From Eledone cirrhosa (lineage: Eukaryota): a DNA stretch of 64,000 bases. The stretch spans positions 311,674,001-311,738,000 of the forward strand of contig OZ024742.1 in assembly GCA_964016885.1 (NCBI GenBank), given 5' to 3'. The notes under the pieces are model-generated. The model did no database searches, was not told where the DNA came from, and was given only the letters and a program-made list of their open reading frames with translations. Shown one piece after another: positions 9,467 through 10,879 of the stretch. Every line of letters begins with the position of its first letter. Position 1 is the first letter of the stretch. A program made the translations under genes and the position numbers.

Positions 9467-10879
9467 AATTAAGTTAAAAATGTACATCTACATATGCATA
9501 CTGAAATACTAGTATGCATATGAATACACACACGTATACATATGTAGATGTACCAAGTCTTTCACTGGTTACTTTACTGTGAGTATCCAGCTATTCTGTA
9601 TGTAAACACACAGACAAACCGGTTTTTAGAGTCATACTGGTTTTTGAGGAAACACCTTTCCTCTATTCTCCAGAAAGCCAGACAAGGAATATTGAACTAG
9701 TTTCGTTGTTGTTACAACTCATCAGCAATATTTACCTATCTACCGGCCTTTCTGGAGAATCGTAAAAGCACATATCGTTATATGCTTTTTCTATGAAAAT
9801 TAGTAGTGGGCAGACTAATTTGCATAGAGTGTGAGTACGTACCGGTTCAACGGAGACGATAAAAACAAATAACGAAACGAAATTAAATTTCGTTTCGTTT
9901 GTAACTCACTTTTGTATGACTGACGCTTAAACAATTAAGTTAAAAATGTACATCTACATATGCATACTGAAATACTTGTATGCATATGAATACACACACG
10001 TATACATATGTAGATGTACCAAGTCTTTCACTGGTTACTTTACTGTGAGTATCCAGCTATTCTGTATGTAAACACACAGACAAACCGGTTTTTAGAGTCA
10101 TACTGGTTTTTGAGGAAACACCTTTCATCTATTCTCCAGAAAGCCAGACAAGGAATATTGAACTAGTTTCGTTGTTGTTACAAATCATCAGCAATATTTA
10201 CCTATCTACCGGCCTTTCTGGAGAATCGTAAAAGCACATATCGTTATATGCTTTTTCTATGAAAATTAGTAGTGGGCAGACTAATTTGCATAGAGTGTGA
10301 GTACGTACCGGTTCAACGGAGACGATAAAAACAAATAACGAAACGAAATTAAATTTCGTTTCGTTTGTAACTCACTTTTGTATGACTGACGCTTAAACAA
10401 TTAAGTTAAAAATGTACATCTACATATGCATACTGAAATACTAGTATGCATATGAATACACACTGCCCACTACTAATTTTCATAGAAAAAGCATATAACG
10501 ATATGTGCTTTTACGATTCTCCAGAAAGGCCGGTAGATAGGTAAATATTTCTGATGAGTTGTAACAACAACGAAACTAGTTCAATATTCCTTGTCTGGCT
10601 TTCTGGAGAATAGAGGAAAGGTGTTTCCTCAAAAACCAGTATGACTCTAAAAACCGGGTTGTCTGTGTGTTTACATACAGAATAGCTGGATACTCAAAGT
10701 AAAGTAACCAGTGAAAGACTTGGTACATCTACATATGTATACGTGTGTGTATTCATATGCATACTAGTATTTCAGTATGCATATGTAGATGTACATTTTT
10801 AACTTAATTGTTTAAGCGTCAGTCATACAAAAGTGAGTTACAAACGAAACGAAATTTAATTTCGTTTCGTTATTTGTTT
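9467..10879 (-). mobile_element. Retrozyme-like element: 466-bp HHR-containing monomer, ~2.1 tandem copies plus a ~415-bp inverted arm
   Basis: Units start at 9467, 9933 and 10399; inverted arm at 10463-10879; HHRs at 9688-9732(-), 10154-10198(-) and 10544-10588(+). No ORF; (TA)n on both flanks. Confidence 0.75.
9688..9732 (-). ncRNA. Type I hammerhead ribozyme (minimal, palindromic stem III)
   Basis: AATATTG-CTGATGA-GTTGT-aaca-ACAAC-GAAAC-ta-GT-T-CAATATT: complete core, 7-bp stem I, 5-bp stem II with G10.1:C11.1. Confidence 0.85.

Follow-up and report, generated by a model that had tools for sequence, protein, structure and literature searches.

The locus at 9467 to 10879 of the window (the whole 64,000-nt stretch of Eledone cirrhosa DNA that was analyzed) is a young copy of a non-LTR retrozyme, a hammerhead repeat that lacks ORFs and is present at high copy number. 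A Penelope-like element (PLE) reverse transcriptase (RT) rolling round one monomer circle likely wrote this copy into a (TA)n break. The first-pass annotation had proposed a retrozyme, and this fits the fixed tail ends seen family wide, the protected hammerhead core, and the lack of a co-oriented ORF in 156 insertions. It had also called the unit viroid-like; of this, only the self-pairing fits, the fold being a branched set of hairpins with no sign of RNA-RNA replication. The hammerhead is present in one polarity only, and the family has thousands of DNA copies.

Two inverted arms of a 466-nt unit in a (TA)n target

The 466-bp period noted at first is exact, with units starting at 9467, 9933, and 10399. 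Units 1 and 2 differ at three positions (9511/9977, 9661/10127, and 9718/10184), and the third copy is 65 nt only, giving an array of 2.14 tandem units that ends at 10463. This array (arm B, 9467 to 10463) has its RNA sense on the minus strand, and its outer end coincides with start site B (unit position 462-1). Next to it lies an inverted copy (arm A, 10464 to 10879) with its RNA sense on the plus strand, which is 0.89 unit long, is 5′ truncated at unit position 347, and has start site A (unit position 397) at its outer end. The two are ∼98% identical, and the outer ends of both lie in (TA)n target sequence, at 9398 to 9466 on the left and 10880 to 10995 on the right. As had been reported, arm A extends 70 nt beyond the array end. 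This tail (10810 to 10879, plus strand) is the sequence between start sites B and A and is found at one outer end only. The likeness of this asymmetry to that of neighboring insertions was borne out by overhangs of ∼66 to 95 nt, by a crude measure, in five neighboring inverted insertions. A long hairpin adjoins start site B (9482 to 9553, repeated at 9948 to 10019 and 10723 to 10794), and a 13-bp hairpin sits in the tail, between sites A and B (9872 to 9898, repeated at 10338 to 10364 and 10844 to 10870). The locus was also correctly described as free of ORFs; the longest ATG ORF is 50 aa on the plus strand and 19 aa on the ribozyme strand.

Hammerheads and fold of the unit

On the minus strand, each full unit carries one type I hammerhead, as first read, made up of CUGAUGA, a 5-bp helix II, GAAA, a 2-bp helix III with the palindrome ACUAGU, and the cleavage triplet GUU. 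The core of unit 1 (9695 to 9725) is intact, with its predicted cut between 9695 and 9694. The core of unit 2 (10161 to 10191; predicted cut between 10161 and 10160) carries the G10.1 substitution that had been pointed out, to U at 10184. A third hammerhead, missing from the annotation, lies on the plus strand of the inverted arm (10551 to 10581). It is a single copy with a helix I mismatch at 10550 and no promoter-like motif upstream. Around the unit-1 hammerhead, helix I is extended (9665 to 9760, minus strand; arms 9748 to 9760 and 9665 to 9677), and every one of the hairpins named at first was found. An Rfam search of the window gave no match at the gathering score; Hammerhead_HH9 matched 9672 to 9743 at 38.6 bits (E = 3.9e-7), under the cut-off of 52. 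Matches to miRNA families, also below cut-off, were rejected as hairpin noise.

The monomer folds at −161.6 kcal/mol (z = −10.55), and none of 100 shuffles was as low. Folding unit 1 as a circle, a check proposed with the annotation, gave −156.9 compared to −92.2 ± 5.1 for 30 shuffles, with 67% of the bases paired. The GC content, from base counts, is 35%, below 50%. The weak palindromic helix III suggests dimeric cleavage (PMC4209133, PMC7229834). A 466-nt monomer spanning the two cut sites is predicted on the minus strand (9695 to 10160), and its release from 10160 to 9695 would require both cuts, one of them through the mutated core. In a survey of vertebrate retrozymes, the activity test is the presence of two consecutive hammerhead units (Li, Clavereau, Pollet 2026, 10.64898/2026.07.22.740005). 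Two such units were found in 56 of 126 family loci, and the tandem arm studied here has one intact and one G10.1-mutated core. Since one of its two hammerheads is mutated, the array at 9467 to 10463 is probably a poor source of RNA and the locus a weak donor.

A young family dispersed through the genome

The recommended search for other arrays revealed a dispersed family with copies on many contigs. In the 3.0-Gb genome (G000), there were 4,739 perfect matches to the 51-nt hammerhead region, 9,221 hammerhead cores when four variable positions were allowed, and 2,377 site-A ends next to TA, compared to 0 in each control. The genome-wide site B count, which included overlapping matches, was not used. 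The 156 insertions analyzed consist of 30 picked by similarity and 126 picked by position on contig C1, the latter drawn from the hammerhead, A-end, and B-end lists. The 30 similarity-selected insertions were left out of the architecture tallies, and 56 of the 156, having fewer than 300 doubly covered sites, were left out of the tree. Dropped before counting were the duplicates L088, L110, and L151, the locus L107 (no unit), and redundant loci among L001 to L030; L043 and L057 were merged by coordinate.

An intact core was found in 426 of the 446 units carrying the full hammerhead. Unit-private divergence is 0.07 to 0.49% by subfamily and 0.22% in the group of the locus at 9467 to 10879, and such low values mean that the 466-nt family is young. 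Its subfamilies diverge by up to ∼10% and form a tree of their own. A sister family of 479 nt aligns over 294 of 520 columns with a score of 278, compared to at most 152 in 20 shuffles. These sister copies (L166 to L173; e.g., G000:C2:78742800-78750800) are older, have a period of 479 in L173, and share helix III, the U6-like motif, and a similar layout with the 466-nt family, whereas helix II differs. In runs X4, X5, and X6, a unit ∼2 to 5% different was present in three further organisms, in X4 and in X6 as nearly one haplotype each, and contigs of all three runs span the whole unit. One 496-nt record of X4 is self-closing; it was rejected as a sign of circular RNA because tandem DNA closes identically.

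Some individual loci show other features. L087 and L088 contain an identical insertion with identical flanks 17.6 kb apart, through either segmental duplication or duplication in the assembly. At 2312 to 2406 of L159, an insertion of one subfamily abuts or sits within the tail hairpin of an insertion of another. In L180 (G000:C2:23696800-23706700), a long satellite of short period, two hammerhead-like motifs are embedded at a distance of 5.3 kb from each other.

Insertions begin at two fixed sites

The outer ends fall at unit position 393 to 397 (site A) or 462 to 1 (site B) and lie in a (TA)n target, in a sample partly selected on TA junctions. Among the 126 position-sampled insertions, 71 were A+B, 14 had one arm and a stub of the other site, 28 had one arm only, 3 were B+B, and none was A+A; the remaining 10 were irregular or cut by the fetch. 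In the A+B insertions, the arms stand back to back with start sites ∼70 nt apart, and their truncated ends are joined, in most cases to within a few bases. This two-arm layout with a one-sided tail is the inverted repeat with tail of PLEs (PMC8557442). Runs X1 and X2, which may be the assembly's own sample, also contain these ends as loose ends at TA.

The purified protein of the lizard element PAc cuts and extends both target strands, and in vitro it starts at two internal RNA sites whose distance corresponds to the tail (PMC11167929). Since internal initiation needs no RNA 3′ end, a circle could serve as the template.

Each insertion carries one haplotype

In 52 two-arm loci, the arm-to-arm distance was 0.42%, compared to 5.7% between loci. 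The lowest of 300 permutations was 4.6%, and the nearest relative of an arm was its own partner in 45 of the 52. Rare alleles give the same picture. In 16 of 64 informative loci, 25 rare alleles were found in every copy and in both arms, in up to 23 copies; in L042, for example, three such alleles recur in 19 to 20 copies, and in L056 a single one recurs in 23. Altogether, the 100 loci carry 73 haplotypes.

Some arrays also have an internal pattern. Variants repeat in blocks in L067/L151 (∼31 units), L052, L056, and L117, which points to DNA-level duplication after insertion in these loci. Array length is therefore not a count of laps. In L030 and L092, certain variants occur in the first unit of both arms and are absent from later units, and in L061 and L063 unit-specific sharing between arms is less clear and mixed. 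Sharing of the L030/L092 type, in two to four loci, looks compatible with a mixed multimer template or with gene conversion. Apparently shared variants of L103 at 218/219 and 273 to 276 were dropped as indel alignment artifacts. In L093, L106, and L035, the length of an RNA-sense A run at unit position 96 varies from unit to unit in a slippage-like manner; slippage at each pass would give such variation.

A-to-G changes and selection on the ribozyme

The tree of 100 locus haplotypes separates 194 inherited (locus-fixed) changes from 398 unit-private ones. On the ribozyme strand, A>G accounts for 59 of the former (30%) and 41 of the latter (10%; Fisher P = 4e-9). The ratio of A>G to U>C was 59:31 among locus-fixed changes (P = 0.002), compared to 41:35 among unit-private changes. 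The locus-fixed excess exceeds that of C>U, which is equally wobble tolerated (P = 0.001), and it persists when unpaired sites are considered (P = 0.02) and with each of four rootings. Pairing selection is therefore no explanation, since C>U changes were kept far less and unpaired sites show the excess too. A good example is L094, in which 9 of 10 private changes are A>G, repeated unit after unit; the seven of these that lie within reach of all three units are present in all three. Of terminal changes present in all of at least three copies and in both arms, 13 of 36 were A>G (P = 1e-4).

The strand bias depends in part on L094. Without this locus, it was 24:14 on terminal branches (P = 0.10) and gave P values of 0.01 to 0.07 on all branches, according to the root, whereas the A>G share was still raised (P = 2e-5). 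U>C is raised somewhat as well, and parsimony miscounts recurrent sites. The neighbor preference of ADAR was not significant, with a 5′ G at 6 of 44 sites compared to 25 of 154. From the one-way A-to-G excess, we infer ADAR-type editing of paired RNA. If one monomer is copied repeatedly, an edit at a single RNA position is expected to recur in every unit. On the cDNA strand, C>T outnumbered G>A by 82:43 among unit-private changes, with no clear TC motif; deamination of displaced single-stranded cDNA or RT error could produce this excess.

The ribozyme is kept, and its core is under selection. The 17 positions of the catalytic core have none of the 194 inherited changes, compared to 7.1 expected (P = 7e-4), and they do receive unit-private changes (11 of 398). 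In helix II, a compensatory change from U-A to A-U was found (unit positions 240/251), and the sole variation of the cleavage triplet in the aligned subfamilies is from GUU to GUC.

A U6-like motif upstream of the hammerheads

An octamer-containing motif, TATGCAAATTAG, resembling the region upstream of U6 genes lies on the minus strand at 9815 to 9826 and again at 10281 to 10292, a second copy placed upstream of both arm-B hammerheads; it is a candidate internal snRNA-type promoter element. The pattern TATGC(A/T)AAT(T/G)AG is found ∼77 nt upstream in three independent U6 loci; among further tandem U6 copies inspected, it was absent in three of five. A single copy of the motif, in RNA-sense orientation, precedes the hammerhead core of the unit by 101 nt, and 15 of 20,000 shuffles gave a match. 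Most copies of the sister family have the motif or a one-base variant ∼89 nt upstream of the hammerhead. A third match in the window, at 51529 on the minus strand, is outside the element, and at G000:C19:31780605-31840331 there are ∼30 U6 genes in tandem at ∼1.8-kb spacing, with a different upstream sequence in some.

The motif at 9815 to 9826 is also a family hot spot of A-to-G change: 12 of the 59 inherited A>G events lie inside it, some of them common to several loci. Either editing is concentrated at the motif, or the motif is not absolutely needed. Runs of five U act as polymerase III terminators. A full-length polymerase III monomer is therefore disfavored, since the unit contains such runs, and the better guess, by analogy, is a polymerase II snRNA-type promoter like that of newt satellite 2 (PMC2220036). 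The first-pass annotation had the RNA produced by read-through transcription from outside; with a U6-promoter-like motif in every unit, such read-through may be unneeded.

Relation to coding PLEs

The question raised at the outset, whether any copy is attached to an RT ORF, was addressed in the 156 insertions, and in none did a co-oriented ORF precede a copy. When eight PLE-like fragments from the window were used as probes over 157 fetched stretches, a sample of at most 7% of the family, PLE-like coding sequence was found somewhere in 51 of them. Arms abut PLE sequence directly in L032 and L079 (inverted) and in L023 (a hammerhead-bearing PLE end). These junctions involve three different families, all in inverted orientation, and the arm is joined to the inverted PLE fragment without TA, as a two-template chimera might be. 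They could be chimeric second arms or older neighbors.

A partner was also sought with a loose hammerhead pattern excluding most family copies, which gave 269 matches compared to 50 in the control. Of 20 such loci fetched, 8 belonged to the sister family and 1 to the family itself, and the other 11 had no extended match to the unit. Among sequences following TA runs in 1.16 Mb, no other family with the same start motif was seen in the best 45 inspected.

In the window itself, an open frame of 788 codons lies at 35474 to 37840 (plus strand), with a partial copy at 56715 to 57899. By eye, it contains RT and endonuclease motifs like those of PLEs. It is young looking, and the pattern search gave no hammerhead in its ends. 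A Pfam search of five window ORFs matched GIY-YIG in two and, weakly, RVT_1 in one, with no match in the 788-aa ORF. Other hammerhead-bearing ends of PLE type are at 7388 to 8030, 9140 to 9397, 10996 to 11298, 13624 to 14022, 24846 to 28003, 48750, and 51655. Their helix III palindromes are ATATAT, ATGTAT, or ATGCGCAT, and they are mostly inverted pairs in (TA)n with overhangs of ∼66 to 95 nt.

DISCUSSION

How a retrozyme insertion may be written

Rolling reverse transcription by a PLE RT, as the annotation had envisaged, fits the single haplotype of each insertion, the fixed tail ends, and the A-to-G changes repeated in every unit. As the origin of the tandem, it agrees with the family as a whole, with the qualification that long arrays also grow at the DNA level. 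The likely course would be as follows. Transcription may start from the U6-like internal motif within a tandem arm, and the RNA is predicted to be cleaved at successive GUU sites, probably by dimeric hammerheads, and then ligated by the host. The paired RNA would occasionally undergo ADAR-type editing, as the one-way A-to-G excess suggests. By analogy with PAc, both target strands would be nicked and extended from two internal start sites ∼70 nt apart, both on the same RNA, each extension being of random length. The two copies would then abut by their 5′ ends, overlapping slightly if at all, an arrangement visible in the insertions, and DNA-level duplication would later lengthen arrays, as some loci show. 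We are evenly divided on a more specific version, in which a dimeric PLE enzyme primes both break ends on one ADAR-edited circle and RNA editing, often striking the promoter-like motif, is a main source of heritable change in the retrozyme.

Two published observations bear on the cleavage step. PAc inserts with no need for hammerhead cleavage and acts mainly on uncleaved RNA (PMC11167929), and among frog retrozyme dimers, eight of nine did not cleave in vitro (10.64898/2026.07.22.740005). The same PLE enzyme might copy a linear uncleaved multimer transcribed from a donor array, with arrays becoming uniform and long through DNA duplication (Li et al. 2026). The preference of PAc in vitro, the block-wise variant repeats of long arrays, and the index-matched variants common to both arms in L030 and L092 all favor such a template, and the two-arm ends and shared haplotype are equally well explained by it. 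However, editing of a multimer should at first yield A>G changes private to one unit, and unit-private changes are symmetric (41:35 over ∼344 unit equivalents); the excess is instead in locus-fixed changes, including the terminal ones fixed in both arms. Moreover, 73 haplotypes in 100 loci would need many single-unit bottlenecks. As a general account, the multimer template is rather unlikely; it is probably true for a minority of loci.

A cleaved linear monomer, with the enzyme jumping from its 5′ end to a 3′ end at each lap, is a highly improbable template. Edits would be fixed in all units if the jump were to the same molecule, and there is a slight rise in truncation at 290 to 320 nt, where A arms first reach the predicted cut (4 of 51; 0.26 per 100 nt compared to ∼0.16 later). 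However, 47 of the 61 arms sampled by their A end crossed the cut, 20 of them at least twice, and arm ends did not pile up there (7 of 199 within 6 nt, compared to 5.6 expected). This free passage argues against a plain cleaved linear monomer. In addition, no added junction bases were noticed, and the variant lists, checked by eye, show no switch of subfamily within an array, with subfamilies up to ∼10% apart.

Slightly less credible still is that the unit is nothing more than a pLTR belonging to a coding Penelope element, of which the arrays would be truncated copies. The ends, target, and hammerhead type are as in PLEs, frog retrozymes are related to pLTRs (10.64898/2026.07.22.740005), and a rare coding master could exist, since no more than 156 insertions were covered out of at least 2,377. 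However, the arms run into further units, up to ∼31 copies, and never into a co-oriented ORF in the 156 insertions; the arms that abut a PLE meet three different families, all inverted; and the family has its own subfamily tree and a sister family of the same layout.

Fold-back self-priming or an antisense template, as proposed for rotifer PLEs (PMC3846280), concerns only the arm geometry and can practically be dismissed. Near-symmetric centers were about twice as common as expected (12 of 82 two-arm loci compared to 5.5), but the other 70 are nonsymmetric, and the two outer ends lie at distinct fixed positions. The lengths of the two arms show at best a weak correlation (rho = 0.23, P = 0.11, 51 loci), and in both arms the A>G polarity identifies the copied strand as that of the ribozyme.

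Comparison with known systems

Rolling of a PLE RT round one monomer circle is the preferred reading, and the 466-nt family works like a non-autonomous PLE passenger. The retrozyme class itself is known. Like metazoan non-LTR retrozymes (PMC7229834), the family consists of ORF-less, low-GC, highly self-paired tandem monomers with one type I hammerhead each, in thousands of copies alongside co-occurring PLEs. Its weak palindromic helix III is like that of the axolotl class, which cleaves better as a dimer (PMC7229834). Its unit of 466 nt compares to expressed RNAs of ∼170 to 400 nt and repeats of 150 to 450 bp in that work (PMC7229834). Dispersed two-arm insertions in (TA)n with two fixed ends are found here, whereas they do not figure in the available account of those retrozymes (PMC7229834), for which circles were shown and insertion was only proposed; here, insertion is read from the genome sequence and the circle is predicted. 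The rolling-circle model is stated there as a hypothesis (PMC7229834).

Like vertebrate retrozymes (10.64898/2026.07.22.740005), the family appears as a non-autonomous PLE derivative with a unit in the range of 51 to 972 bp, and no pLTR parent of the 466-nt unit was found in the 156 insertions. The vertebrate survey rests on co-occurrence and pLTR homology and suggests local tandem amplification, and no analysis of ends, arms, or editing such as that given here was seen in its text. The AT-rich target, the inverted 5′-truncated arm, and the extension of both strands are shared with PLEs and PAc (PMC11167929, PMC8557442, PMC3846280), as is an extension of one end whose length matches the spacing of two internal start sites (PMC11167929). 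The tail is ∼70 nt here compared to the published 30 to 40 nt (PMC11167929, PMC8557442, PMC3846280). Unlike PAc, the unit has no ORF and its template appears to be read repeatedly, and its hammerhead core is under selection, whereas that of PAc is dispensable for insertion in vitro (PMC11167929). Newt satellite 2 is likewise a hammerhead repeat with an internal snRNA-like promoter element (cited in PMC2220036); the candidate motif here, in contrast, matches in sequence the regions upstream of three U6 loci of this genome. Non-autonomous elements of Chlamys, e.g., MRC1, are also PLE passengers with multicopy head-to-tail insertions, but unlike the 466-nt unit they share 3′ sequence with autonomous families, and most Chlamys elements lack hammerheads (PMC8557442).

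In the literature examined, from which subscription journals were largely absent, no paper was found with two-arm, shared-haplotype, or editing evidence for retrozyme insertion. There, the return of retrozyme RNA to DNA, with a circle as template and a PLE enzyme, is proposed and not shown. With its defined template, its pair of start sites, its target, and its barcode, the 466-nt family makes the proposal testable. It also bears on questions about PLEs themselves, namely, the origin of the inverted arm, the strand that is copied, and the purpose of the hammerhead. If the reading given here is true, RNA edits would become inherited DNA changes by way of a noncoding circle, and the family would be a natural model for writing circular RNA into a genome. 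This genome would then hold thousands of single-molecule records of rolling-circle target-primed reverse transcription.
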